DNA of 64,000 bases from Patescibacteria group bacterium (GTDB taxonomy: Bacteria > Patescibacteriota > Minisyncoccia > Phycocordibacterales > UBA1550): NCBI GenBank assembly GCA_038063615.1, contig JBBTUT010000003.1, forward strand, positions 1,352 through 65,351, given 5' to 3'. A program made the position numbers and the translations under genes. Below the pieces are notes generated by a model. It was not told the origin of the DNA. It worked only from the letters and a program-made list of their open reading frames with translations, and did not search any database. Below, in pieces: positions 4,779-58,348 of the stretch. Each line of letters starts with the position of its first letter. The stretch's first letter is position 1.

Positions 4779-4912
4779 TGAATGGGGAATGGGGAAGGGG
4801 GAATGAATATCGAATATCGAATGTTGAATATCGAATGTTGAATGTTGAATGTTGAATGTTGAATGTTGAATGTTGAATGTTGAATATCGAATGTTGAATG
4901 TTGAATGTTGAA
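4779..4912. repeat. Heptamer tandem repeat array (GAATGTT/GAATATC/GAATGGG units, about 17 copies)
   Basis: Direct reading: gaatggggaatgggg...gaatatcgaatgttgaatgttgaatgtt... Confidence 0.9.
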
Positions 4913-4915
4913 TTA

Positions 4916-4961
4916 GCAAAAACGCCTCCTATGTCCTATAGGACATAGGAGGCGTTTTTGC
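4916..4961. terminator. 46-nt perfect palindrome gcaaaaacgcctcctatgtcctataggacataggaggcgtttttgc
   Basis: Perfect inverted repeat with CTATAG centre, T-rich flank. Likely bidirectional intrinsic terminator. Confidence 0.7.
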
Positions 4962-5032: not shown

Positions 5033-6127
5033 ATGGAACAAACACTGGGAGAACAACCAACAGCGGACACTGCTACTGAATTAACAAATTCAGCAACGGG
5101 TCAGACGATTGACAAAGAAGAAGAGAAAGCAGTAGAGAAGCTTCCTCGGACGGCTTTTCTCGCATCGCTCGGCATCGAAAATCGTTCGGCGAAAATCGTG
5201 CTCACAGGCGCGCTCGGAATCGTATTTTTTGCCACGCTCATTTCGTTTCTTTTGATGCCGCCACGCGACTTTCCCAAAGATAAAACGATTACGGTCAGGA
5301 GCGGTGTTTCTCTCGGGCAGGTGTCGCTCCTCCTAAAAGATGAGCACCTTATTCGCTCGCGCACTCTTTTTGAACTCTGCTCAAGGGCTGTCGGCGGGGA
5401 CAAACCGATTCTCGCGGGACAATACTTGTTCAAAGATTCCGCTTACGCATGCACCATCGCAATGCGTATCGCGCGCGGTATTTCGGGTATACCGAGCGTA
5501 CGCGTGACTATTCCCGAGGGAATGTCAAACAAGGAAGTTGCCGTGGTCATTGCGAAACTGCTTCCCGGCTTTGACTCCGCTTTTTTCCTTGAAAACGCGC
5601 GACAAAAAGAGGGGTATCTTTTCCCTGACACTTATTTGCTTTCCACGAGCGTGAATACCGAGAAGATCGTGTCGATAATGAGCGCAAATTTTGAGAAAAA
5701 GATAGAATCATGGATCCCGATCATCGAGTCCTCGGGACGCTCTCTCCGCGATACCATTATTATGGCGTCCATCCTCGAAAAAGAAGCAACTACCGACGAA
5801 GACAAAGAGCTCGTTTCAGGCATCCTTTGGAAGCGCATCAAGATCGGAATGCCACTTCAGGTTGACGCGACATTCATGTATCTTTTTAATAAAAAGTCGA
5901 GTGATATTACGCAAGCGGATCTCCAAATGAAATCAGTGTACAATACCTATCGCAACAAAGGTCTGCCGGGCGGCCCCATCGGCAATCCGGGTATCGCTGC
6001 CATCCGCGCGGCCATCCGCCCAAAAGATTCTCCATACCTCTACTATCTCTCCGACGACAAAGGCGTGATGCACTATGCGAAAACTTTTGCCGAGCATGTG
6101 GTGAATAAGGGGAAGTACTTAAGATAG
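5033..6127 (+). CDS. mltG: Endolytic murein transglycosylase MltG (YceG family)
   Basis: N-terminal TM segment. YceG-like motifs (EGYLFPDTY, GLPxGPIxNPG, YLYYL). TGTTATAAT extended -10 box 7 nt upstream of the ATG. Confidence 0.8.
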   Translation: MEQTLGEQPTADTATELTNSATGQTIDKEEEKAVEKLPRTAFLASLGIENRSAKIVLTGALGIVFFATLISFLLMPPRDFPKDKTITVRSGVSLGQVSLLLKDEHLIRSRTLFELCSRAVGGDKPILAGQYLFKDSAYACTIAMRIARGISGIPSVRVTIPEGMSNKEVAVVIAKLLPGFDSAFFLENARQKEGYLFPDTYLLSTSVNTEKIVSIMSANFEKKIESWIPIIESSGRSLRDTIIMASILEKEATTDEDKELVSGILWKRIKIGMPLQVDATFMYLFNKKSSDITQADLQMKSVYNTYRNKGLPGGPIGNPGIAAIRAAIRPKDSPYLYYLSDDKGVMHYAKTFAEHVVNKGKYLR

Positions 6128-6210
6128 AATATCGAATATGGAATGTTGAATATGGAATGGGTGTGTTAACCCGTATTTATTCAATATTCAATATTCGATA
6201 TTCGATATTC
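6127..6210. repeat. Heptamer repeat hairpin: gaatatcgaatatggaatgttgaatatggaatgg ... tcaatattcaatattcgatattcgatattc
   Basis: Forward and reverse-complement copies of the same GAATATC/GAATGTT units flank a 20-nt spacer between mltG and mnmA. Confidence 0.8.
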
Positions 6211-21344: not shown

Positions 21345-21390
21345 TATGACGAGTAGTCTTTTTGCAAAGGTAGAATATGAATTTTTGTCA

Positions 21391-21412
21391 TACTGGGTCA
21401 GGTACCCTTTCC
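21391..21412. repeat. REP-like element tactgggtcaggtaccctttcc
   Basis: Same GGTCAGGTACCCTTTCC core as the hairpins flanking the IS200-like transposase at 35024-35098. Confidence 0.6.
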
Positions 21413-21470
21413 TAAAATTGAATCCAAAAACTAAAATTAAAAATTTTGATGAGGCGGGGGCTGTGGTAGA

Positions 21471-22016
21471 ATGAAATGCATGAAGAATAACAGTGGTAAA
21501 ATTTCAAAGGAGAAGATTTTACCAAACATTGTTTTGAGGTATTATCATTCGCCACAGAAACGGAGTGATAATAAATTATCGGGAATTACTTGCGCCTTCT
21601 GTCTTGAAAAAAACATAATAAATATCGGCGGTGGTTTCCATGACAAAAAGGGTAAACCCCATCAGATTTGCGAAAAATGCGCGGTATGGCGATATCGAGA
21701 TGATAACGGGTTCCGTACTCTGTCCGCAGCAAAAGCGCGCCGCCGTAGAATATTTGATGTTGGGTATATATTTAACGAAATGGTGATTGATAGGTATATA
21801 AGCATAAAGGGTGTTAAAAATTACGATGCCTTACCCACTGGGGTTGCGGATGTGATTTTTATAGATGCTGCTAATCTTTACAACTATCTTTTTAGTAAGG
21901 AGGATAAAATTAGAATCGAAGAAATTGAGAGGCAGGATGAGATTGCGGACGAATTGCGAAAGAGGATTGAAATTATTGATTTCAAAAAATATTTTACCGA
22001 AAAAGGACTTTTGTGA
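21471..22016 (+). CDS. Hypothetical Cys4 zinc-ribbon protein
   Basis: CAFC...CEKC zinc-ribbon-like motifs. Preceded by TGTGGTAGAATGAAATG (-10-like TAGAAT abutting the ATG); first residues MKCM shared with ORF 24356. Confidence 0.45.
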   Translation: MKCMKNNSGKISKEKILPNIVLRYYHSPQKRSDNKLSGITCAFCLEKNIINIGGGFHDKKGKPHQICEKCAVWRYRDDNGFRTLSAAKARRRRIFDVGYIFNEMVIDRYISIKGVKNYDALPTGVADVIFIDAANLYNYLFSKEDKIRIEEIERQDEIADELRKRIEIIDFKKYFTEKGLL

Positions 22017-24248: not shown

Positions 24249-24290
24249 TAGGTGTCAGGAGATACTGGGTCAGAGACCTTTGACTCAAAA
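24249..24290. repeat. Composite REP-like element ataggtgtcaggagatactgggtcagagacctttgactcaaaac
   Basis: Contains both the aggtgtcagg (as at 22191) and gatactgggtcag (as at 21391) variants. Confidence 0.55.
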
Positions 24291-24338: not shown

Positions 24339-24355
24339 GGTAAGTCTGTGGTAGA

Positions 24356-24544
24356 ATGAAATGTATGACAGAAGAAGAAATCGCGGTTAAACAACTATCG
24401 GAGGAATACGCAGGACTCTCTGATTTTTTATTGCGTGCGTCGTCTGATGAAAAGAAGAAAATAATCACTGAAGCGGCTCGTCGTGCGAACGAGGATCAGT
24501 TCGAGGTTTTTACTAAAGCAAGGCTTAAGATTGGGGCGAATTAG
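24356..24544 (+). CDS. Hypothetical small protein (62 aa)
   Basis: Preceded by TGTGGTAGAATGAAATG, identical to the module at 21460. Starts MKCM like ORF 21471. Followed by a conserved terminator-like element. Confidence 0.4.
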   Translation: MKCMTEEEIAVKQLSEEYAGLSDFLLRASSDEKKKIITEAARRANEDQFEVFTKARLKIGAN

Positions 24545-34817: not shown

Positions 34818-35023
34818 GTCTGCCTCCTTTTTAAGAACTATGAATTTTATTCTTCCCTAAAACTACTCTTAAATCACCAAAAAGTCAAAAGTTGCGGGTT
34901 CTGCTATAATGCGGTTTGTATGTCTGACCAAAACAAAACAGAGGCAAATTCACTCGATCAAAAAGAACAGATGAAAAAAGGTTTGCGCGCGGTATGGCGC
35001 CATGTGCGACCGTTTAAAAAAGG

Positions 35024-35798
35024 GGGAAAGGGGGTCAGGTACCCTTTCCCTTTACTTCTGGGGAAAGGGGGTCAGGTACCCTTTCCCTTTACTTCTGATA
35101 TACTAACCATATGCCTCGCATCACTCGTACCGACATCGGCAATCATTGCTATCATGTCATAAACCGTGCCAACGCGCGTATGCCGATTTTCTTCGCAGAA
35201 AAGGACTATGTTTTGTTTGAGCAAGTCCTAGAGGAAGCGCAAGAAAAGTTCTCTATGAGAATCCTCGCATACTGCCTCATGCCAAACCATTTTCACCTTG
35301 TGTTGTATCCAAAAAATGATGGTGACATGGGAAAATTCATGCAATGGCTCACGCTCACCCATACCCAGCGCTGGCATCAGGCGAACAATACGAAAGGAAG
35401 TGGGCATCTCTACCAAGGAAGGTACAAATCTTTTTTGATACAGGGCGACAACCATCTTCTCTCTGTTATTCGTTATGTCGAGCGAAACTCGCTTCGCGCA
35501 AAACTTGTTAGAAAAGCAGAGAACTGGGGTTTTTGTAGTTTAGCACGACGACTATCAATCAACACAAGAAAAAAGAAACTCTTGTCAGCATGGCCGATAC
35601 CGGAGCCAAGAGATTATCTCTCATTTGTTAGCACCCCGCAAACAAAAGAAGAGGAAGAAAGCATCAGAGGATCTGTCGTAAGAGGGAAGCCGTTTGGTGC
35701 AGATGCATGGGCTACAAAAATGATCGAGAAGTTTGGACTTGAAGCTACCGTGCGCTCGACAGGGAGACCCAAAAAGGGTACCTGACCCCCTTTTTCTC
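35024..35798 (+). mobile_element. IS200/IS605-like (RAYT-like) element: two tandem 38-nt left hairpins, a Y1 transposase gene, and an inverted right hairpin
   Basis: Left: gggaaagggggtcaggtaccctttccctttacttctg twice (35024-35098). Right: aaaaagggtacctgaccccctttttctc (35771-35798), inverted. Transposase stop TGA lies inside the right hairpin. Confidence 0.7.
35111..35785 (+). CDS. IS200-like / REP-associated tyrosine transposase (Y1 HUH)
   Basis: HUH motif in CLMPNHFHLVLYP. Transposase_17-like N-terminus (YHVINRANARMPIF). Confidence 0.7.
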   Translation: MPRITRTDIGNHCYHVINRANARMPIFFAEKDYVLFEQVLEEAQEKFSMRILAYCLMPNHFHLVLYPKNDGDMGKFMQWLTLTHTQRWHQANNTKGSGHLYQGRYKSFLIQGDNHLLSVIRYVERNSLRAKLVRKAENWGFCSLARRLSINTRKKKLLSAWPIPEPRDYLSFVSTPQTKEEEESIRGSVVRGKPFGADAWATKMIEKFGLEATVRSTGRPKKGT

Positions 35799-36467
35799 AA
35801 AAGAGCGATGCGCGGGGTTGATATTCTGCGTCAATATGATATCCACCCGGGGGTGATTTGTACTGTTACCAAGAAAACGGTGAAATATGCCGAAGAAATC
35901 CTTCATGGGTTGGTTTCTGCCGGTTTCAAAAACATCGCTTTCAACGCCTTTTATAACACGGCATCGGAAAGTGGCGGAGACGAGTATGGGTTATCGGATA
36001 AAGACTGGTACGGTTTCCTTAGAGAAATCTTTGAATCATGGCTGGAAATTAATGATGAAACGATTCGTGTGCGCGAGCTGGATGCTATACTGGCGTGGAC
36101 GCTAGGGAAGTCAACAAACGAATGTTCTTTCCGCGGAAGTTGCGATAAATGGTTTGCGATTGACCACGCAGGTGATGTTTACCCTTGTGAAAGGTTTGGG
36201 AAGAAAGTCAATTTTGGAAGTCTTGATTCTCTTGGGGTCTACGGAAATCTCATTATGAGTCAAACTTTTCTTGAGTGGAAAGATTCAATCCAAGTATTAC
36301 CGAGTAAATGCAGGGCTTGCACTTTTCTATCATTGTGTAACAATGGTTGTAGTAGTCATAGGCAAGCTGATGATCAAGGGGTGCCTCTTTATACCTATTG
36401 TGAAAGTCGGCTGGATTTCTATGGTTTTGTACAAAATCGGATAAAGAAAGGAGGTGAGACGCTATGA
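35733..36467 (+). pseudogene. Radical-SAM/SPASM maturase (anSME-like) C-terminal fragment; N-terminal Cx3Cx2C core missing, interrupted by the IS element
   Basis: Twitch/SPASM Cys clusters (CSFRGSCDKWFAIDHAGDVYPCERF; CRACTFLSLCNNGC) align with the C-terminal half of anSME-type enzymes. No CxxxCxxC. The frame enters from the IS right hairpin. A separate 35-codon ORF upstream of the IS (34921-35025) has its own TATAAT. Confidence 0.6.
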
Positions 36468-37583: not shown

Positions 37584-37724
37584 AATTAAGGTCAATTGTA
37601 CCAAAACCCATAACTAGCATAAAAGATTTTTGTTCTTGTTGCTGGCATGGTATGATTGAATGGAAGAAAATGAGGTTGAGAGGGTTTTTGATTCTATCGC
37701 ATTAGGTATTTAAAAATATCATGA

Positions 37725-37967
37725 ATTCAGAATATTACTCTGTTGATGTGGATGTGTGTATAATTACTCGAAAAAAGCTTGACATTTTGTTCTTAGCGCG
37801 ATACTCTTTTGGTAGACAGTAGCGGATGCTTTGAGATTGGCTTGAGGTGACGCTAGGGTACTTTAAAAAGGGAGGTGATGCCACGCAACTTTGTAAGGTA
37901 TTAGGAGGTTCGGCTCGAGATTGGCTTGAGATGACTCCAAAGATTTCTTTAAAAAAGGAGATTTATT
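37725..37967 (+). promoter_or_regulatory. Promoter (TTGACA-N17-TACTCT) plus about 190-nt conserved 5' leader, copy A
   Basis: About 85% identical to 39200-39434. Contains two internal copies of GAGATTGGCTTGAG. Confidence 0.5.
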
Positions 37968-38189
37968 ATGAAAAAAAGTAAAAATGCTACACCCAGCCAT
38001 AACCCTTTTGCTTCTGAAGGGTTCAAACTATCTTCCTATACCCACAAATGCTGTTGCGTTGCGGTGCGTATAGGGGACACTGTGGACCTCCGTGACACCA
38101 AAAACCCAAATAGTCCCACGCTTTCTTTCAATAGGAAAGAGTGGAAGGCCTTTGTGAAAGGCGTGCAGTCCGGCGAGTTCAATGTCTGA
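37968..38189 (+). CDS. DUF397 (BldB-like) small protein, copy A
   Basis: FKLSSYTHKCCCVAVRIGDTVDLRDTKNPNSPTLSFNRKEWKAFVKGVQSGEFNV fits the DUF397 consensus (KSSYS..CVEVA...VRDSKDP.GP.L.F...EW.AF..GVK.GEFD). Confidence 0.55.
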   Translation: MKKSKNATPSHNPFASEGFKLSSYTHKCCCVAVRIGDTVDLRDTKNPNSPTLSFNRKEWKAFVKGVQSGEFNV

Positions 38190-38249
38190 GCTGAAGAAGC
38201 TTCGGAGGGGGTGTTTTTACACTCCCTCCGTTTTTATTTAAATAATAGT

Positions 38250-38993
38250 ATGGAAAAGAAACTAAAAATAAAAGTATCAGAAAAGAATTATATATACGGA
38301 CGACTGAGCGGATCATCTCGCCAACCGCTTTTTATCGTTGTCCACGGCCTTCCTGGGTCAATGGACGAAGATTTTTATCTAAACGCAACACGCTGGTTTG
38401 TAAAACGAGGGTATGCTTCGTTTCGTTTTAATCTTTATGGCACAGAGAAAAATTCTCGGCAAATGATGGACTCAACACTAAAAACACATGCATCCGATAT
38501 TGATGCGGCCGTGCGTTATTTCCGTGGGAAAAAATTTCAGAAGATATTTATTGCGGGGCACAGTTACGGTGGTCCAAGCATCTTACTTTCAAGTGAGCAA
38601 AAATTTGACGGAGCGGTCCTATGGGATCCTTCATATAAAGTATCATTCACAAAAACACAGCACGGTTTTCCTGCCGTAAAATATATCAAGGAGATAAAAG
38701 GGTATATTATGAATTGGGGAACAAATCTTATTGTCGGAAAGGCAATGGCTGACGAGGCAAATACGATAAACTGGAACGAACTCACCAAGAATTTTCATCT
38801 GCCCCTAAGAATCATCGCTGCTGGGAAAGGGCACTTGGTGCGCGGTGCGAAACATTATTTTAGGACGGCCAATGACCCCAAGGAACTGACAGTCATCAAA
38901 GACGCAACTCATTATTTTAATGATACGGAAGATATGCGCGAAAAAGTATTCAAAATTTCAGAAGATTGGTTCAAAAAAATATCAAATAGATAG
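38250..38993 (+). CDS. Alpha/beta-hydrolase fold protein (esterase/peptidase-like)
   Basis: Nucleophile elbow GHSYGG. ORF track starts at 38211. Confidence 0.6.
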   Translation: MEKKLKIKVSEKNYIYGRLSGSSRQPLFIVVHGLPGSMDEDFYLNATRWFVKRGYASFRFNLYGTEKNSRQMMDSTLKTHASDIDAAVRYFRGKKFQKIFIAGHSYGGPSILLSSEQKFDGAVLWDPSYKVSFTKTQHGFPAVKYIKEIKGYIMNWGTNLIVGKAMADEANTINWNELTKNFHLPLRIIAAGKGHLVRGAKHYFRTANDPKELTVIKDATHYFNDTEDMREKVFKISEDWFKKISNR

Positions 38994-38999
38994 AAGATA

Positions 39000-39050
39000 G
39001 CCGTGTTTTTTTGTTTTCTTTTTTTGTGCGGGGCGTGGTATGATTGGGGG
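39000..39050. repeat. 51-nt module gccgtgtttttttgttttctttttttgtgcggggcgtggtatgattggggg, duplicated exactly at 50127-50178
   Basis: Terminator tail plus GGCGTGGTATGAT extended -10 box. Identical copy upstream of the 50202 gene. Confidence 0.8.
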
Positions 39051-39199
39051 GAGAAGGGAAATTTAATTTAAAAAATCAATGGCAACAGATCATTTTGGGG
39101 AAGTTGTGCGAGCCGTGCGTAAGGAGGGACTTTATCCGGAAATCCCGATTGTTCAAAGTGCTGCAACGGAGACAAAAATTGTTGTCGACGGGAAAGACT

Positions 39200-39434
39200 T
39201 CTTACTCTGTTGATGTGGAGGTGTGTGGGTAATTACTCGAAAAAAGCTTGACAGTTTGTTCGTGGTGGGATACTCTGTGGGTAGACGGTAGTGGATGCTT
39301 TGAGGTGGGCTCGAGGTGGCGCTAGTGTACTTTAAAAAGAAAGGAGGTGATGAAAAATTGATATTGATTGGGAGGTTCGACTCGAGATTGGCTTGAGACG
39401 ACTCCAAAGAGCTCTTTAAAAAAGGAGATTTGCC
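39200..39434 (+). promoter_or_regulatory. Promoter plus conserved 5' leader, copy B
   Basis: Paralogous to 37725-37967. Confidence 0.5.
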
Positions 39435-39623
39435 ATGAAAAAGAGTAAGAACACTCGTGTGAGCAAGAATGAGCGTGGTGATAAAGTTATCACTCTGTGT
39501 GGGGTCAGTAACTGTTGCCCTACGGTGACGATTGATAGGGGAGGCAACCATGTCATCAAAGATGACTTCGGAGGTTCAGTCGTACTATCTAAAGAGCAGT
39601 TCGGGATGCTCAAAGAGGTTTAA
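39435..39623 (+). CDS. DUF397-like small protein, copy B (divergent)
   Basis: MKKSKN start shared with copy A. VITLCGVSNCCPTVTIDRGGNHVIKDDFGGSVVLSKEQFGML resembles the DUF397 core. Confidence 0.4.
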   Translation: MKKSKNTRVSKNERGDKVITLCGVSNCCPTVTIDRGGNHVIKDDFGGSVVLSKEQFGMLKEV

Positions 39624-39680
39624 CCGTAGTTCCACTGCATCAAGACGCCTCAAGCTTTACTGTGCGAGGCGTCTATTTTT

Positions 39681-40682
39681 ATGAAAAAACAACATACAGA
39701 ACTTTTATTTGTTCAGATTACCCCTGAGTGTAATATGGGTTGTCGATATTGTCCTTTTTCTAACCAAAATAATCTTATAAATAGACAAAATAATTTTAGT
39801 GCGCAGATCAATTCAATCAAAAACACTTTTGACTCAAAATCTTTCACAGAGAGTTCTTTCGGTGAGTTAATTGTATATGGAGGAGAGGCGCTTCTTTACT
39901 TTGACCAAGTTAAAAGAATAATTAATGAATATAAAAATTTCCGACATTACGGAAAAATAACAGTATGCACTAACGGCATTCTTATTAATCAAGATGTCAT
40001 TACCTATTGTAAAACCAACAAGATAAATGTGACTATAAATATGGATGGGGATTTTAATTTAGTCGCAAGTAATAAATTTTTTTCTAAAACAGATTGGGCT
40101 AAACTCACTGGTAATATAAAAGGACTTCATTCAGAGGGAATACCATATGATTTCTCTACGACCATTACACCTCACTTTATTGAAAATTTTAATTCACAAG
40201 TAAAATTTTTAGAATCTTTGCACCCGAGAATGATAGGTTTTAATTTTTTGAGGGATACTCAAGCACAAAAAGAATTTGGAATAAGCAACCCTGATAATTA
40301 TTTGCAAGATGCTACTTCTTTGGTGTTTAAATATAACTCAGTTGTGAATTTTAATCGAAATAAAAAACTGAGAGCTTTTAAAGAGAAAAAACAGATTTCT
40401 GATTGTATATGTTCTGGGATGGGTATAACTATCCTCGCAACCGGTGAATATACGACATGCGGAATATTTCCATCTCAAAGATGCAGGACATCAAGAGAGG
40501 TAATCAGCATCATGAAGGAAAATTATAAAAAATTATTTTTAGACATAGAACTAGGACAAAACATAAAAGACTTACCAACTTTTGGAGGAGGTTGTTCAAA
40601 GCTCTTGCGAGAGGACAATAAAAGATTTTCTTATTATAATGCTTGGGTAAGTTTTGAACAGTTTAATTATGAAAAATTATAA
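39681..40682 (+). CDS. Radical SAM enzyme with C-terminal SPASM domain
   Basis: CNMGCRYC (Cx3Cx2C) at residues 17-24. C-terminal Cys clusters (CICSGMG...CGIFPSQRC...GGGC). Confidence 0.75.
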   Translation: MKKQHTELLFVQITPECNMGCRYCPFSNQNNLINRQNNFSAQINSIKNTFDSKSFTESSFGELIVYGGEALLYFDQVKRIINEYKNFRHYGKITVCTNGILINQDVITYCKTNKINVTINMDGDFNLVASNKFFSKTDWAKLTGNIKGLHSEGIPYDFSTTITPHFIENFNSQVKFLESLHPRMIGFNFLRDTQAQKEFGISNPDNYLQDATSLVFKYNSVVNFNRNKKLRAFKEKKQISDCICSGMGITILATGEYTTCGIFPSQRCRTSREVISIMKENYKKLFLDIELGQNIKDLPTFGGGCSKLLREDNKRFSYYNAWVSFEQFNYEKL

Positions 40683-41457
40683 AATAGGGGTTATTGGCGG
40701 CTCTGGGATATACACTCTGCAAGACTATAAGTTTTTTGCAGGTAATTTTGACAATGAGTACAAAGATAGTGAGTTGGGAATAGAAAAATATAAATTTAGT
40801 AATTGTGAAATATATTTTTTATCTAGACATGGCAAAAATCATATGATCCTACCTCACGAGATAGATTATTTGACCAATATTAAGGCATTTGATGATTTGA
40901 AAGTTGATTGCATCATATCTTTTTGCACTGTTGGTTCATTAGATTCTAATTTCCAGCCCGGCTTGTATGTTACCCCAAAAGATATCATTGATTTTACCTA
41001 CAACAGGAAAGGATGGAACTACACCAAAGAAAACAAGCATGTTGATATACAGCCAGTTTTTGGCGAGGATTTAATGAGAGTTTGTAAGCAACTGTTTAAT
41101 AATATTAATGTTCCATTGAATAATGAGGGAACACTTGTTGTAATTGAAGGACCAAGGTTTGCTACTCTGGCAGAGCAAAATATGTACAAAATATTCGGTG
41201 GTAGTTTTTTGAATATGACCCAAGCGCAAGAAATTTATTTGTCGCATGTTTTCCAAATCCCATTTATTTCTCTGTGCCACATAACCGACCTGACCTCAAT
41301 CGTAAATAAAAACTATGACCTAACTTCAAGTGATGCGATATCGGTATTCAAAAGCAATTACAGTAAAGTGGAGAGGATATTGAGCGCGCTGGTCAAATAT
41401 TTAAGTGAAAATAAACCAGAAATAAAGTATCATAGTGATAAGCAAACTTTCGTGTAA
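40672..41457 (+). CDS. Purine nucleoside/5'-methylthioadenosine phosphorylase family protein (MTAP-like)
   Basis: IGVIGGSGIY N-terminus, SRHGKNHMILPHEIDY, VIEGPRFATLAE, HITD: PNP_UDP_1/MTAP pattern. Overlaps the radical-SAM gene end. Confidence 0.65.
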   Translation, partial: KNYKIGVIGGSGIYTLQDYKFFAGNFDNEYKDSELGIEKYKFSNCEIYFLSRHGKNHMILPHEIDYLTNIKAFDDLKVDCIISFCTVGSLDSNFQPGLYVTPKDIIDFTYNRKGWNYTKENKHVDIQPVFGEDLMRVCKQLFNNINVPLNNEGTLVVIEGPRFATLAEQNMYKIFGGSFLNMTQAQEIYLSHVFQIPFISLCHITDLTSIVNKNYDLTSSDAISVFKSNYSKVERILSALVKYLSENKPEIKYHSDKQTFV

Positions 41458-43275: not shown

Positions 43276-43414
43276 GCATGGATTTTAGTATGCCGATGTA
43301 TTCAATGCAAAATTTCTTTCATTTTTCGCATCGGGCGTGGTATAATTGAAATGTAAAAGTTCGTACAAATACTGATTCGAGCGTTGGGTATGAGAAAAAT
43401 AGTTTGTTTTTAAA

Positions 43415-50099: not shown

Positions 50100-50140
50100 T
50101 CTTTGTTTCCTTGCACGGCTATTGATTTTAAAATCAATAG
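50100..50140 (+). terminator. Hairpin acggctattgatttt-aaaatcaatagccgt plus U-tract, followed by the duplicated 51-nt module
   Basis: Perfect stem after lysS. Confidence 0.7.
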
Positions 50141-50201
50141 CCGTGTTTTTTTGTTTTCTTTTTTTGTGCGGGGCGTGGTATGATTGGGGGAACGGAACGA
50201 T

Positions 50202-51276: not shown

Positions 51277-53061
51277 ATGATACTTAACCTTGATATCAAA
51301 AATACATTAATATTGATTATCGCGGTAATCAATATTACATACGGCGCAATCATTTATTTAAAAGATAAAAAGAGCGCTACCAGTAGCTGGTTTTTCCTTT
51401 TGGCCGTCTCGGTGGGATTATGGGGAGTAAGTATGTTTTTATTTCGATCTGCTCAAGAAGAGTATTTGGCCAGTATTTTTTCAAGAATTTTGTATTTCTC
51501 AGCAGCGGTTATCCCCATCGTGTTTATTTATTTTTCAGCTGTCTTCCCAAGTGTTTCATCTGTATTTGGTTTTCGACAAAAATATATTCTGCCAATCCCA
51601 TTTTTTATAATAGCTTTATTCTCCTTAACTCCTGATTATCTGGTAAAGAGTACGCAGATTCTAGTAGGTGAAGAAACACACATTTTATTTAATAATTTTT
51701 ATCATACACTTTATGTTTTTTACATAAATATTTTTTTCGCATACGGATATTTTTTATTGGTTAAAAAATATTTTGTAAGCAGATTTCAAGATGTTGTTTT
51801 AAGTAAGCAAATTATTTATATTATCGCAGGAACATTTATTTCGACAATGATTGGTGTTTTTACAAACCTGCTTGGACCATATATGGGTATATTTAAGTTT
51901 AATTGGGTTGGTCAAATTGGAAATGTCGTTATGATTTCAGCTATCTCATATGCAATAGCTAAACATCAGTTGTTTAACATCAAACTCATCCTCGTTGAAT
52001 TGGCGATTTTGTTGCTTAATATGTTTCTTTTGTTCAATGTGTTTACTTCGCATGCGACGGTGGACTTTGTGCTCAATATCTCGGTGTCATTGTTTGTCTT
52101 TATCTTCAGCATCATCCTTATGCGCGGTATTTACAAGGATATTCGGGACAGAGAGCGGATCGAGGGATTGGCGAAAGAGATGGCGGTGACGAACGAGAAG
52201 CTCCATATACTGGAACAACAAAAGACGGAGTTTGTGTCCATCGCTTCGCACCAGCTCCGCACTCCGCTGACAGTCATCAAGGGCTATGCGTCGATGATCC
52301 TCGAGGGGACTTTTGGCACCATTGCCACTCCGGTGCACGATGCTATGGACAAGCTGTACAAGTCGAGCGAGAGGATCGTGGCACTGGTGGAGGACCTGCT
52401 GACGGTGTCGCGACTGGAGCAGGGGAGAGGCGCGCTTCATTTTGAGACGGTGGACCTCGTGAGAGTCATTCAAATGGTGACGATGGAAATGGATGAAGAT
52501 ATCAAGAGGTCAAATCTCGACTTCTCGTTTACGGTGGAAGAGGGGGGAGAATTCCCCGTCGCAATCGACGAGAAAAAGTTCAAGCAAGTGGTGAAGCACA
52601 TCCTCGACAATGCCATCGAGTACACAAACGCCCCCGGCAGAGTGCGTATCGCTATCAATGAAGACAACATCGCCGACAAAATCCGTCTCACGGTTTCTGA
52701 TACCGGGGTGGGGATGACCGCGGAGCAGATCCAGAGTATTTTTGAGAGGTTTAATTTGAAGATTAAAGAGCAGACGACAAACGACGGACAACAGACGACG
52801 GGGGAAGGGGAAAGGAAAAAGGAAGGAAAGTTTTTATGGCCGAGCCACGAATCAGCTGATTCGAAGTTGAAAGTGGAAAGTGGAATACAAGAATCAAAAT
52901 CAGAAGAACCAGAGACAGAGGCGCCAAACCAGCGCACGCCCGGTATCGGGCTCTACATTGCGCAGGAAATTATCGAAGCCCACCACGGCACCCTGCACAT
53001 CGAGTCCGCCGGCATGAACGAAGGCACGACGGTGATCGTGGAGTTGCCGAGGGCTAAATAA
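51277..53061 (+). CDS. Membrane sensor histidine kinase (multi-TM sensor, HisKA, HATPase_c with low-complexity insertion)
   Basis: H-box SIASHQLRTPLTVIKGY. G1 DTGVGM and G2 GIGLYIA are separated by an about 45-aa Gly/Glu/Lys-rich insert. Confidence 0.8.
   Translation: MILNLDIKNTLILIIAVINITYGAIIYLKDKKSATSSWFFLLAVSVGLWGVSMFLFRSAQEEYLASIFSRILYFSAAVIPIVFIYFSAVFPSVSSVFGFRQKYILPIPFFIIALFSLTPDYLVKSTQILVGEETHILFNNFYHTLYVFYINIFFAYGYFLLVKKYFVSRFQDVVLSKQIIYIIAGTFISTMIGVFTNLLGPYMGIFKFNWVGQIGNVVMISAISYAIAKHQLFNIKLILVELAILLLNMFLLFNVFTSHATVDFVLNISVSLFVFIFSIILMRGIYKDIRDRERIEGLAKEMAVTNEKLHILEQQKTEFVSIASHQLRTPLTVIKGYASMILEGTFGTIATPVHDAMDKLYKSSERIVALVEDLLTVSRLEQGRGALHFETVDLVRVIQMVTMEMDEDIKRSNLDFSFTVEEGGEFPVAIDEKKFKQVVKHILDNAIEYTNAPGRVRIAINEDNIADKIRLTVSDTGVGMTAEQIQSIFERFNLKIKEQTTNDGQQTTGEGERKKEGKFLWPSHESADSKLKVESGIQESKSEEPETEAPNQRTPGIGLYIAQEIIEAHHGTLHIESAGMNEGTTVIVELPRAK
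52801..52885. repeat. 85-nt element (ggggaagggg...aagtttttatggccgagc...aatcagctgattcgaagt.gaaagt) inserted in-frame in the kinase ATP-lid; second copy at 56216-56300
   Basis: Shared 19-nt and 24-nt blocks between the two loci, read directly. Confidence 0.7.
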
Positions 53062-53242
53062 TTTTGTGGATATGTTTTTTGCAAAATTATCGCCCGAACA
53101 TTTGTAAACAAATGTTTTAGAGGGAGGGGCAGTTAAATAGCCAATAGTGAATAGTCAATAATATTACGCGGCGACCCCTCTGTTTTTGTGTTTGGTGTGG
53201 TAGAATGATATGGAGGAAAAAGATTCTAGTATATATTGGTAT

Positions 53243-54556: not shown

Positions 54557-56215
54557 ATGTCCGTTACGGTACTTGCAATTGTGCAAAATATTTCGATTGA
54601 GGGATGGGGTGTCTCGGCTGCGGGACTGCTCGCGGTATTTTTTTCGAGCATTGTCTTTTGGCAGGATCCTGCGAAGCGCAGTAACAGAACTTTTTTATTT
54701 TTTGGGGCGGCTGTCAGCGTGTGGGGCATTGCGTTCGCGGTCTTCACGGGGACATACGGCACTCCCGCTATCCATGGCGCGCTGTCGATGATTTATCTTG
54801 TCGCGCCACTCGTGCCTCTCTCGCTATTCCTTTTTTTGTATGATTTTTCAATAAAAGGAAGCCCATTTTCATTTTGGAAATTTGCTGGAATTTTCACTCC
54901 TTATTTGTGTCTTGCGGGATTGCTTTCTATTCCCAATTTCATCACCGGTTACGACGAAACGCTGGATGGTGGCTTGGGGGGCAGGGTTTTTGGAAAAGGA
55001 TACCCGATCTATAGCTTCTACATGCTCGCATTCCTTTCTGCGGGGGTCATTGTCCTCATTAAAAAATATCGCGAGAGTGCGGGGATATTCAAATTTGCAA
55101 TCAGAAATATTCTGCTTGCGTTTTTCGCGATGAGCGTTCTTGCTACCACGGTGATGCTCCTTTTTCCTCTTTTTTGGGTAGGGTACGACTTGTTTTGGGT
55201 CGGGCTCCTCGGCGTAATCATCTTTGAGTTTGTCATCGCACTCATCCTTATCAAATATAATTTTTTGAGCTTGAAGGTCATTGCGACCGAGTTTTTCATT
55301 TCAATCATTGCTCTGGTTTTGGTTGTGGAGCTTTTCCTCGCGACTTCGACGCTCGACTTGCTCATCAAGGCGGGTATCGCGATGCTCATTATTTTTTCAA
55401 GTTCATTTCTCGTCGGAAGCATCAAGCGCGAGATCCAGTCCAGCGACAAAATCGCGCGCCTCTTGGGCGACCTCGACTATATGCACAAACAGCTCAAGGT
55501 GCTCGACAAGAAAAAGTCTGATTTCCTCTCTATCGCTTCACACCACTTGCGCGATCCGCTGACCGCTATCAGGGGGTATGCCTCGATGCTCACCGAGGGT
55601 TCCTTTGGTGAGCTCTCGGTATCCTTGAGAGAAGCTGTTGAAAAAATCCTCGATTCGAGCGAACGCCTCATCACGATGATCTCTGATTTTATGGATATTT
55701 CGCGCATCGAGAGCGGGGATATGAATTATAAGTTTGTTGATGTCGATATGAAGAAGCTGGTGCTCGACCTTGCTGATGAAATGAAGTTCAACGCCGAGCG
55801 CGCACATCTTGGGTTTAATGTTGCGGTAGGCAAGGACTTGTTGAAAGATGAATCGTTCGTGACGGTGGGAGATGCGGGCAAGTTGCGTCAAGTGGTTTCA
55901 AATATCATTGATAACTCGATCAAATACACTCCGCAGGGTGAACTGTCGCTCCTGCTTTCCAAGAGTCCGGACCGAAAGAAAATACTTTTCAGTGTCTCGG
56001 ATACGGGTATCGGCATGAATGCAAGCACGCTCGAAAAGATTTTCAGAAAATTCAGCCGTGCCGATGGGGTAAGCAAAGTCTATACCGAGGGCACCGGTCT
56101 GGGTCTCTATGTGGCAAAGGAGATCATCAAAAAACACGAAGGGCGCATCTGGGCGGAGTCCAAAGGCGAGGGTATGGGTTCGAGTTTCTATATGGAGTTG
56201 GAGGCGAAGGTGTAG
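54557..56215 (+). CDS. Membrane sensor histidine kinase (second copy)
   Basis: H-box SIASHHLRDPLTAIRGY. N, G1 (DTGIGM) and G2 (GTGLGLYVA) boxes. GGCGTGGTATACT box directly upstream; likely leaderless. Confidence 0.8.
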   Translation: MSVTVLAIVQNISIEGWGVSAAGLLAVFFSSIVFWQDPAKRSNRTFLFFGAAVSVWGIAFAVFTGTYGTPAIHGALSMIYLVAPLVPLSLFLFLYDFSIKGSPFSFWKFAGIFTPYLCLAGLLSIPNFITGYDETLDGGLGGRVFGKGYPIYSFYMLAFLSAGVIVLIKKYRESAGIFKFAIRNILLAFFAMSVLATTVMLLFPLFWVGYDLFWVGLLGVIIFEFVIALILIKYNFLSLKVIATEFFISIIALVLVVELFLATSTLDLLIKAGIAMLIIFSSSFLVGSIKREIQSSDKIARLLGDLDYMHKQLKVLDKKKSDFLSIASHHLRDPLTAIRGYASMLTEGSFGELSVSLREAVEKILDSSERLITMISDFMDISRIESGDMNYKFVDVDMKKLVLDLADEMKFNAERAHLGFNVAVGKDLLKDESFVTVGDAGKLRQVVSNIIDNSIKYTPQGELSLLLSKSPDRKKILFSVSDTGIGMNASTLEKIFRKFSRADGVSKVYTEGTGLGLYVAKEIIKKHEGRIWAESKGEGMGSSFYMELEAKV

Positions 56216-57993: not shown

Positions 57994-58257
57994 ATGGGAT
58001 TTTTGGAAAGAATTATAAATAGAACAGAAAAGCTGATCAATCCGAAGCAACATTCGTTCGATATCAAGCAGTCGGCGCAGACAGAGCTCATACAAAAGGC
58101 GGGCGGAGATGATTTCGCGGGGACTTGGATCGATGCGAATGGAAGACGGTTTGAAGAGCTGGTAAATGACCCGAGGTACAACTTTATCGAACGACTGGGG
58201 GATGAGAAGACGCACGCCGAGGCGCTCAAAGAGATAGATAGTAAACTTTATCACTAA
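57994..58257 (+). CDS. Hypothetical small protein (87 aa)
   Basis: ORF only. Confidence 0.3.
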   Translation: MGFLERIINRTEKLINPKQHSFDIKQSAQTELIQKAGGDDFAGTWIDANGRRFEELVNDPRYNFIERLGDEKTHAEALKEIDSKLYH

Positions 58258-58263
58258 CGGGGA

Positions 58264-58314
58264 TAGAATGTTGAATATCGAATATCGAATATTGAATATG
58301 GAATGGGGAATGGG
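58264..58314. repeat. Heptamer repeat block gaatgttgaatatcgaatatcgaatattgaatatggaatggggaatggg
   Basis: Same unit family as 4779-4912 and 6127-6210. Confidence 0.85.
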
Positions 58315-58348
58315 TACGCTAACTTTATTAACTTTACAAACTAAATTC

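Follow-up and report, generated by a model that had tools for sequence, protein, structure and literature searches.

A covarying stem-loop in the duplicated 5' leaders of two Patescibacteria operons, a candidate cis-regulatory RNA element

We analysed a 64,000-nucleotide (nt) stretch of contig JBBTUT010000003.1 from a Patescibacteria group bacterium (positions 1,352 to 65,351, forward strand; hereafter the window), in which two operons, beginning with genes A and B, carry closely similar untranslated leaders. Each leader contains two copies of a small stem-loop that recurs, with compensatory base changes, upstream of orthologues of gene A in other Patescibacteria, and we are confident that it is a genuine RNA structure under selection. 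Its duplication, structure, covariation, strand specificity and position relative to the predicted promoters are direct observations; an effect on messenger RNA (mRNA) stability or translation, and the existence of a factor binding it, we infer from them. Our favoured reading, to which we assign a probability of about 0.45, is that of an RNA element which acts in cis and post-transcriptionally from the 5' end of the mRNA. Such a 5'-terminal hairpin would probably control stability or translation through a binding factor common to both operons.

Results

Each RNA leader is about 160 nt long and consists of two tandem modules. A module begins with an imperfect stem-loop, in which an outer helix, P1, and an inner one, P2 (6-8 base pairs, bp), enclose a 5-nt loop (AUUGG or GUGGG); an A/U-rich spacer and a Shine-Dalgarno (SD) sequence follow. 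The apex of each stem-loop is a 14-nt repeat, (C)UYGAG - AUUGG - CUYGAG(G), and in the predicted folds the outer helix is UAGCG/CGCUA in hairpin 1 and GGAG..UCG/YGA.CUCC in hairpin 2. The four hairpins are given below with their scores under R1, the covariance model described further on.

37820-37855, + strand: hairpin 1 of leader A (fold; R1 16.6 bits, E = 0.24); P1 37820-37824/37851-37855, P2 37828-37835/37841-37848, loop AUUGG 37836-37840; outer extension pairing 37811-37814 with 37859-37862
37904-37938, + strand: hairpin 2 of leader A (fold; R1 35 bits, but a seed sequence of the model); GGAG 37904-37907 paired with CUCC 37935-37938, inner helix CUCGAG/CUUGAG, loop AUUGG 37920-37924
39289-39324, + strand: hairpin 1 of leader B (fold; R1 13.5 bits, E = 1.3); inner helix CUUUGAG/CUCGAGG, loop GUGGG 39305-39309
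39371-39405, + strand: hairpin 2 of leader B (fold; R1 31 bits, but a seed sequence); loop AUUGG 39387-39391

From the homologues of the DUF397-type gene A we extracted 33 distinct upstream regions. The same hairpin was located in about 23 distinct loci of Patescibacteria, each time upstream of an orthologous gene of the Cys-rich DUF397 type. Beyond the closest relative, L009, the leaders can barely be aligned; one hairpin, just upstream of the SD, does align by sequence. Most orthologous leaders have a single hairpin and lack the tiny open reading frame (ORF) found in those of the window. Inner helices and loops of the window and of six relatives illustrate the pattern.

Window: CUCGAG-AUUGG-CUUGAG
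L009: CCCGAG-GUGGU-CUUGGG
L011: ACUUGGG-AUUUC-CCCAAGU
L012: UCAAG-AUUUU-CUUGA
L031: UGUUGAG-AUUUC-CUCAGCG
L033: UGUCGAG-GUAUU-CUCGGUA
L038: ACUUGCGG-AUUUC-CUGCAAGU

In a MAFFT alignment of 15 sequences, 87.3% of the cells of the 7-bp inner helix are paired (overall, 87-92%), and all seven P2 pairs show double, both-side changes. The covariation score of this alignment is 0.595, against 0.354 ± 0.041 in shuffles, none of which (0/500) reaches the observed value; controls with a slid register give 35-52% pairing. Counted over 27 hairpins, the cells comprise 138 Watson-Crick pairs, 36 G-U, 3 A-C and 12 other combinations. The excess of G-U over A-C (P = 2e-4, composition-corrected) indicates that pairing takes place in the sense-strand RNA, and not in a DNA palindrome or an antisense transcript. 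Because some hairpins had been found by a hairpin search, we ran a shuffle control on 29 leaders: 22 of them have, at -60 to -30, a hairpin whose stem reaches 6 bp or more and whose loop has 4-6 nt (8.6 ± 2.3 when shuffled), and 16 have one whose loop, in addition, starts with R-U (1.9 ± 1.3 when shuffled).

The model R1, built from the 15 sequences, recovers the unseeded loci L015 (E = 0.0066), L053 (E = 0.0026) and L057 (E = 0.047) with all pairs kept, and the loop of L057 is AUUGG, as in the window. Across the 64-kb window only the four leader hairpins score above noise, and the R1 search finds no further copies there. One match, at 1835-1877 of L019, lies inside a coding region and was set aside as spurious. 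The start of the 5-nt loops is well conserved: position 1 is A or G in 22/22, position 2 is U in 21/22 and position 3 is U or G in 21/22, while the pair closing the loop is G-C in 23 of 27 hairpins. Taken collectively, the outer helices exceed their shuffled-flank controls in stability (Stouffer Z = -4.2).

Three further pairings were considered and rejected as features of the family. A helix masking the SD is not significant family-wide (Stouffer 1.3). By inspection, a pseudoknot between the loop and downstream sequence (UUGG/CCAA) is possible in the window copies only, at the expense of the outer helix, and is not seen in L009 and others; pairing of the loop with the SD or start codon is conceivable for the pyrimidine-rich loops of some relatives, not for AUUGG of the window, and is inconsistent. 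A search of Rfam 15 gave no match in the window at gathering thresholds, and only noise at E <= 10 in 37600-39700. In locus L003, two hairpins with loops AAUUGU and AAUUGCA lie at 1881-1928, upstream of genes for a 53-residue Cys peptide and a radical SAM enzyme, and the first of them, GGAAUUGUCUGG, resembles GGAUUGUCUUG, the DUF397-leader hairpin of the same contig. With only 3.8 bits under R1 and a fold z of -0.84 they were not accepted as family members, and the resemblance is anecdotal.

About 12 nt past each window hairpin stands CUUUAAAAA(A)GGAG, followed by ATG. Unit alignment shows the leader to be an internal tandem duplication of a hairpin-SD-ATG module of about 84 nt, and identifies the first SD-ATG region as a copy of the second module that has diverged.

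37870-37904, + strand: SD-like GGGAGGUGAU (37870-37879) and tiny ORF 37878-37904 (MPRNFVRY*), by sequence reading
39343-39361, + strand: SD-like GGAGGUGAU (39343-39351) and tiny ORF 39350-39361 (MKN*), by sequence reading
37941-37964, + strand: local helix AGAUUUCUUU/AAGGAGAUUU over the SD of gene A (GGAG 37957-37960), by folding

The tiny ORF of leader A is an ATG with seven further codons and TAG, that of leader B reads ATG AAA AAT TGA, and GGAGGTGAT precedes both. GGAGGUGAU follows hairpin 1 in the two leaders (37871-37879 and 39343-39351) and presumably has 9 nt of complementarity to the usual 3' end of bacterial 16S ribosomal RNA, the window itself having no ribosomal RNA gene. The first-module ATG lies only 2 nt behind GGAGG, which under the established rules of SD spacing is too close for efficient initiation. 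The SD of the second module is normally spaced and, in the window lineage, can pair with an upstream UUUCUUU tract; that of gene A is paired with a predicted probability of 0.98, against 0.50 in shuffles (z = 2.2). In the orthologues, a genuine SD follows the single hairpin.

The leaders are part of a larger duplicated cassette of about 255 bp, delimited by alignment and repeat search, with 82-83% identity and sharp edges.

37733-37988, + strand: cassette A, comprising 5' flank, promoter, leader and the first ~7 codons of gene A
39200-39455, + strand: cassette B, a copy of cassette A ahead of gene B

The alignment runs from 37733/39200 to about codon 7 of both genes, and the repeat search pairs 37735-37759 with 39202-39226 (96%), 37753-37880 with 39222-39349 (84%) and 37900-37984 with 39367-39451 (88%). 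By segment, identity is 94% in hairpin 2, 89% in the 45-nt flank upstream of the -35 element (the second-best conserved segment), 86% in hairpin 1, 83% in the promoter, 83% in the anti-SD/SD segment, 81% in codons 1-7, 79% around the first SD and 48% in the body of the tiny ORF, the least conserved part of the cassette. Beyond codon 7 the coding sequences (CDSs) are 43% identical, a background level. The repeat GAGATTGGCTTGAG occurs exactly at 37833, 37917 and 39384 (0 expected from 100 shuffles); a fourth copy at 39302, GAGGTGGGCTCGAG, has three mismatches to it, two of them loop substitutions and the third a T>C change that turns a G-U pair into G-C.

A preliminary description of this DNA had reported leaders and promoters of about 85% identity with far more diverged coding sequences, two repeat copies in each leader, and tiny upstream ORFs of 8 and 3 codons with their own SD. 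These features are all present as described, the identity up to the ATG being 82% (195/237 columns). Its proposal that the repeats belong to a structured RNA element also stands: the repeat forms the core of the stem-loop, and the structure covaries in homologues, the check that it had set, with double changes in 7/7 pairs and a score that 0/500 shuffles attain. The substitutions in copy B, which it had called coordinate, do preserve the structure, but they include no double compensatory change. We part from it on the meaning of the A/B identity, which it took to imply selection on the RNA, since the flank upstream of the -35 element is equally conserved and the orthologous leader diverges more than the CDS.

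The resemblance of the two leaders has, in fact, another origin. Between gene A of the window and its orthologue in L009, CDS DNA is 85% identical and the leader 75%, so that leaders evolve faster than the gene A-type CDS; the paralogous leaders A and B, at 83%, are closer to each other than the orthologous ones. The same is seen in hairpin 2, with 33/35 matches between A and B in the window, 32/35 between L009 (A-type) and L015 (B-type), and 25-27/35 across lineages; beyond the hairpin, the L009 and L015 leaders are only about 57% alike. As paralogous hairpins are closer than orthologous ones, the A/B similarity reflects duplication or concerted evolution. The hairpin in the two operons appears, from these comparisons, to be under concerted evolution, which could proceed by short gene-conversion tracts or by selection matching both hairpins to one partner.

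Other segments of this genome are duplicated as well. A 54-nt segment made of a T-rich tract and an extended -10-like TGGTATGATTGGGGG is found at 38997-39050 and, 100% identical, 11 kb away at 50137-50190; a 75% copy of it lies upstream of cassette A (37627-37658), and TGGTATGATTG-type sites are present at 43338 and 19097 too. Promoter segments seem to have been copied around the genome. A 44-residue ORF, MATDHFGEVVRAVRKEGLYPEIPIVQSAATETKIVVDGKDFLLC (39079-39213), starts past the promoter-like site at 38997-39050, and its stop codon falls just within cassette B, at the 5' edge. It has no match in Pfam or PDB; the cassette seems to have cut a gene short and left this N-terminal stump of it.

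The predicted promoters and the terminator-like sites of the two operons are as follows.

37779-37807, + strand: predicted promoter A, TTGACA-N17-TACTCT (pattern match; same arrangement in L009 and orthologues)
39248-39276, + strand: predicted promoter B, TTGACA-N17-TACTCT (pattern match)
38203-38240, + strand: terminator-like hairpin (38203-38230) and T-run after gene A, before the alpha/beta-hydrolase gene (fold -27.6 kcal/mol, z = -5.8)
39643-39672, + strand: terminator-like hairpin after gene B (terminator scan, fold)

TTGACA-N17-TACTCT has only these two matches in the 64 kb, for 0.02 expected, and transcription would start from them. The best -35/-10 pair upstream of each hairpin was chosen by an unsupervised search. 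The distance from the -10 element to the loop then falls into two tight classes, 27-32 nt for P1+P2 hairpins and 12-15 nt for short hairpins with P2 only; in hairpin 1 of the window the loop starts 28 nt after the -10, as in the single hairpin of orthologues. Once the 5' arm is subtracted, the base of the structure falls at the expected start site (about +1) in both classes. The distance from loop to ATG is much looser (33-58 nt), and the two together suggest that what is constrained is placement at the 5' end. Judged by position, hairpin 1 of the window appears to be the counterpart of the orthologues' single hairpin, with hairpin 2 keeping the SD-proximal place. A terminator scan found no intrinsic terminator inside leader A or leader B; terminator-like sites occur only after genes, and strong ones stand behind both small genes, A and B.

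The genes downstream of the two leaders are the following.

37968-38189, + strand: gene A, a 73-residue DUF397-type protein with an HKCCCVAV motif (Pfam PF04149, E = 2.4e-11; 23 homologues, the named ones Patescibacteria)
38250-38993, + strand: alpha/beta-hydrolase gene, downstream of gene A (Pfam)
39435-39623, + strand: gene B, a 62-residue protein with three Cys and without a Pfam family (Pfam search)
39681-40682, + strand: radical SAM gene, downstream of gene B (profile search)
40654-41457, + strand: PNP_UDP_1 phosphorylase gene, behind the radical SAM gene (profile search)

The product of gene A is 100% identical to an NCBI entry named 'DUF397 domain-containing protein [Patescibacteria group bacterium]'. 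The DUF397-type protein has an invariant HKCCCVAVR...RDTK, its close relatives occur in Patescibacteria contigs only, and its gene is always followed by an alpha/beta hydrolase in relatives, sometimes a short one. A search of the DUF397 profile against PDB gave no match. The papers found on DUF397 deal with Streptomyces XRE-DUF397 pairs, and no RNA motif is described in them. Proteins A and B match each other by BLASTP at E = 7e-4, a value driven by the common MKKSKN start, and with an hhalign probability of 5%. In the window lineage the same leader also stands ahead of a second operon, of a small Cys protein and an enzyme resembling radical SAM peptide maturases. In NCBIfam this enzyme comes closest to the maturases of Cys-rich peptides, ranthipeptides and SCIFF, with every match far short of its cut-off. 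By its layout (39435-41457), the gene B operon resembles one for peptide modification, of the kind making ribosomally synthesised and post-translationally modified peptides, with salvage of 5'-deoxyadenosine.

Loci L001 (3900-4000), L002 (3900-4000) and L005 (3890-4000) contain DUF397-type relatives with other leader hairpins, outside the present family. They adjoin genes for DUF305 and CsoR-type (Trns_repr_metal) proteins, and in L005 also a copper-ATPase; these neighbours hint that the triple-Cys DUF397-type protein may be metal-related. Sensor kinases of HisKA_7TM type lie beside the DUF397-type operon in L003 (5955-8141) and L010 (1267-2862), and the window has two genes of that family, 51277-53061 and 54557-56215, 12-16 kb downstream.

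Discussion

The leader hairpin belongs to a stem-loop family predicted to stand at the very start of the mRNA of the DUF397-type protein and alpha/beta-hydrolase operon, and we propose the following mode of action for it. It would act in cis, in RNA and after transcription, the 5'-terminal stem-loop setting mRNA lifetime and ribosome access on a transcript that would be short, heavily expressed and ended at the terminator just past the small gene. Recognition would most likely involve the R-U-K loop and the closing G-C pair, read by a factor common to both operons. In the window, the first module (hairpin and GGAGGUGAU, with an ATG too near for good use) would serve as a stabiliser made of a 5' stem-loop and a ribosome-binding site, and the second would supply the real translation start, which in this lineage a weak local helix could mask.

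Two sub-models are contained in this proposal. If the element were a stabiliser combining a 5' stem-loop with ribosome binding, this would account for its constrained place near the start site, for an SD behind hairpin 1 that is strong though poorly spaced, and for short transcripts bounded by terminators. A sequence-specific operator would explain why the loop start and closing pairs are conserved, why a second copy lies near the SD, and why the hairpins of the two operons co-vary by lineage. Most likely the two are combined, in a 5' hairpin bound by a factor that affects decay or initiation.

Both sub-models have precedents, and by analogy the hairpin would act like known 5' stabiliser or operator hairpins, yet it matches no described family. 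According to work listed in PMC3997798 (references 92-95, 106 and 109 therein), mRNAs can be stabilised by stem-loops at the 5' end, and also by ribosomes that bind but do not translate, as for the aprE leader, STAB-SD and ompA. Compared with such stabilisers (aprE of B. subtilis, cryIIIA STAB-SD, ompA and papA of E. coli), the present element likewise has a hairpin at the 5' end, here a predicted one, and a strong SD-like sequence after it, with translation not needed and a transcript that is short and presumably abundant; the first window module has both known determinants, hairpin and GGAGGUGAU. The stabilisers are, however, single-gene cases without a conserved loop, whereas here the R-U-K loop start and the closing G-C are conserved across a phylum-level group; unlike them, the element has undergone an internal duplication, and one of its copies is remote from the 5' end. 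Protein-bound operators, such as the coat-protein operator of phage MS2 and the leaders of ribosomal-protein genes and thrS, share with it a short hairpin with semi-conserved loop and closing pairs, a location upstream of the SD (15-25 nt here), and its presence before two operons, where it changes with its paralogue within a lineage. It has no sequence relation to any described operator, and no binding protein is predicted for it.

Several points weigh against the favoured reading. On the side of the structure, the location of some hairpins by a hairpin search biases the pairing counts; loop positions 4-5 vary; the outer helix is individually weak, falling below 5% of shuffles in 4/23 sequences; and masking of the SD is significant only in leader A, copy B and L009 (z = 2.2-2.5). 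Three relatives (L001, L002 and L005) have different leaders, and the comparison of L009 with L015 assumes a one-genome origin for loci taken from different samples. As to the 5' end, the start site is a prediction, and the -10 element TACTCT has 3/6 consensus bases and is left unscored by a generic promoter scan. Promoter-like TGGTATGATTG sites lie 85-165 nt upstream, so that longer transcripts are possible, in which the hairpins would not be 5'-terminal. In each window leader, hairpin 2 is about 85 nt from the predicted 5' end, and end protection cannot explain it. Finally, no candidate binding protein was identified for the hairpin; among the ten large window ORFs scanned, RNases J, Y and E were not found.

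A bolder version of the favoured reading holds that the hairpin is the operator of a dedicated RNA-binding regulator, co-evolving with it in each lineage and tying together two Patescibacteria-specific operons. We consider it doubtful. If true, these reduced genomes would have a small regulon, controlled after transcription, that serves a peptide-modification system and links the DUF397-type and hydrolase operon to that of the Cys peptide, radical SAM maturase and 5'-deoxyadenosine salvage.

A small riboswitch, in which one or both hairpins bind a metabolite or ion and expose or mask the SD, seems improbable to us, even though the RNA is structured, covaries and sits just upstream of the SD. 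Folding predicts that SD to be paired in the window lineage (probability 0.87-0.98; shuffles, about 0.5), and some relatives have a sequence-conserved 4-nt bulge, U(U/A/C)AA. The two tandem hairpins with identical loops, small and upstream of the SD, recall guanidine-II (mini-ykkC); there, however, the loop is ACGR, while here it is AUUGG/RUKNN and varies by lineage, and the hairpins are 84 nt apart and mostly single in relatives, where the structure is one nearly continuous hairpin. Ligand pockets are normally invariant, whereas from lineage to lineage neither the loop, at its positions 3-5, nor the internal loop stays the same (AUUGG, GUGGU, AUUUC, AUUUU and others). The masking of the SD is not conserved in the family and the leader has no terminator, hence no conserved expression platform. 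The comparison with RNA family models that the preliminary description had recommended brought no relevant match in Rfam, even at E <= 10. The co-change of the loops in two operons of one lineage is a better fit for a co-evolving macromolecular partner than for a fixed small ligand.

Slightly less probable still is an operator at the DNA level, with the inverted repeats serving as sites for a transcription factor that binds as a dimer, such as one controlled by the HisKA_7TM two-component systems nearby. The spacing between the repeats and the -10 is indeed fixed, the operon in L003 and L010 has sensor kinases of one family beside it, and the 89% conserved stretch upstream of the -35 suggests additional DNA-level elements. 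But the asymmetry between 36 G-U and 3 A-C is expected only for sense-strand RNA, all seven pairs covary where a half-site would be fixed in sequence, and the second hairpin is about 110 nt downstream of the promoter.

Attenuation by a leader peptide, where translation of the tiny ORF would select between alternative structures as in trp and erm, was the likeness drawn by the preliminary description, and we find very little in its favour. Tiny ORFs with a strong SD do occur in the structured leaders A, B and L009, and the stop codon touches the base of hairpin 2 in A and L009; in B it comes 9 nt before that hairpin (stop 39359-39361, hairpin from 39371). No segment is less conserved than the ORF body, and the leader has no terminator, which leaves attenuation unsupported. 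The ORFs have 8, 3 and 8 codons and encode unrelated peptides, with no conserved peptide or regulatory codons; there is no terminator or antiterminator, most relatives lack the ORF, and their single-hairpin leaders do without it. The ATG 2 nt from GGAGG and its SD are rather a diverged copy of the second module. In sum, the hairpin is probably not an attenuator, and a riboswitch is unlikely.

An equally poor case can be made for a neutral segmental duplication with incidental hairpins: this genome copies promoter segments, and the cassette has sharp edges, includes non-leader DNA and abuts a short ORF ending at its edge, but compensatory hairpin changes across many Patescibacteria lineages with otherwise unalignable leaders largely refute it.

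Two other kinds of element were compared with the leader hairpins. ANTAR targets are dual hairpins with hexaloops, placed close together, the second overlapping a terminator. The window leaders also have two hairpins, with loop A1 and G4 in the window copies, but these are pentaloops 84 nt apart without a terminator, and G4 is present in 9/22 loops. A hairpin associated with a transposase of REP/IS200 type was rejected: there are only four copies, all in the two leaders, and the repeats next to the Y1 transposase of the window differ in sequence.

Returning to the favoured reading of a post-transcriptional element, the hairpin is plausibly a candidate new cis-regulatory RNA family of Patescibacteria, tied to the DUF397-type/hydrolase operon, and as such a candidate for RNA databases. 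Patescibacteria, of the Candidate Phyla Radiation (CPR), cannot be grown alone, and to our knowledge very few regulatory RNAs have been described for them. The covarying hairpin gives a handle on the control of a widespread uncharacterised operon, that of a triple-cysteine DUF397-type protein and a hydrolase, and in the window lineage it is common to the radical SAM peptide operon too. Paralogous hairpins that change together within a lineage offer a testable case of a co-evolving pair of RNA and partner. The evidence from covariation is solid, and few regulatory RNAs are on record for the CPR; the element itself is a simple hairpin whose function is proposed only.

Additional features of the window

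Ahead of an IS200-type Y1 transposase ORF (35111-35785; Pfam E = 6e-17) lie two 37-nt repeats, exact and in tandem (GGGGAAAGGGGGTCAGGTACCCTTTCCCTTTACTTCT, palindrome-containing; 35023-35096), with related copies at 21390-21417 and 24262-24289. The 3' end of the transposase ORF is overlapped by an ORF with a SPASM domain and without the radical SAM N-terminus (35733-36467). Intergenic arrays of 7-nt tandem repeats (TGAATAT / CGAATGT variants) are found at 4790-4927, 6105-6179 and 58251-58325. The motif TGTGGTAGAATG, extended -10-like, stands a few nt before start codons at 21462-21487, 24347-24372 and 53196-53221. This placement suggests that leaderless or very short-leader mRNAs may be common in this genome, in which case the leaders of about 160 nt of genes A and B would be unusual for it.

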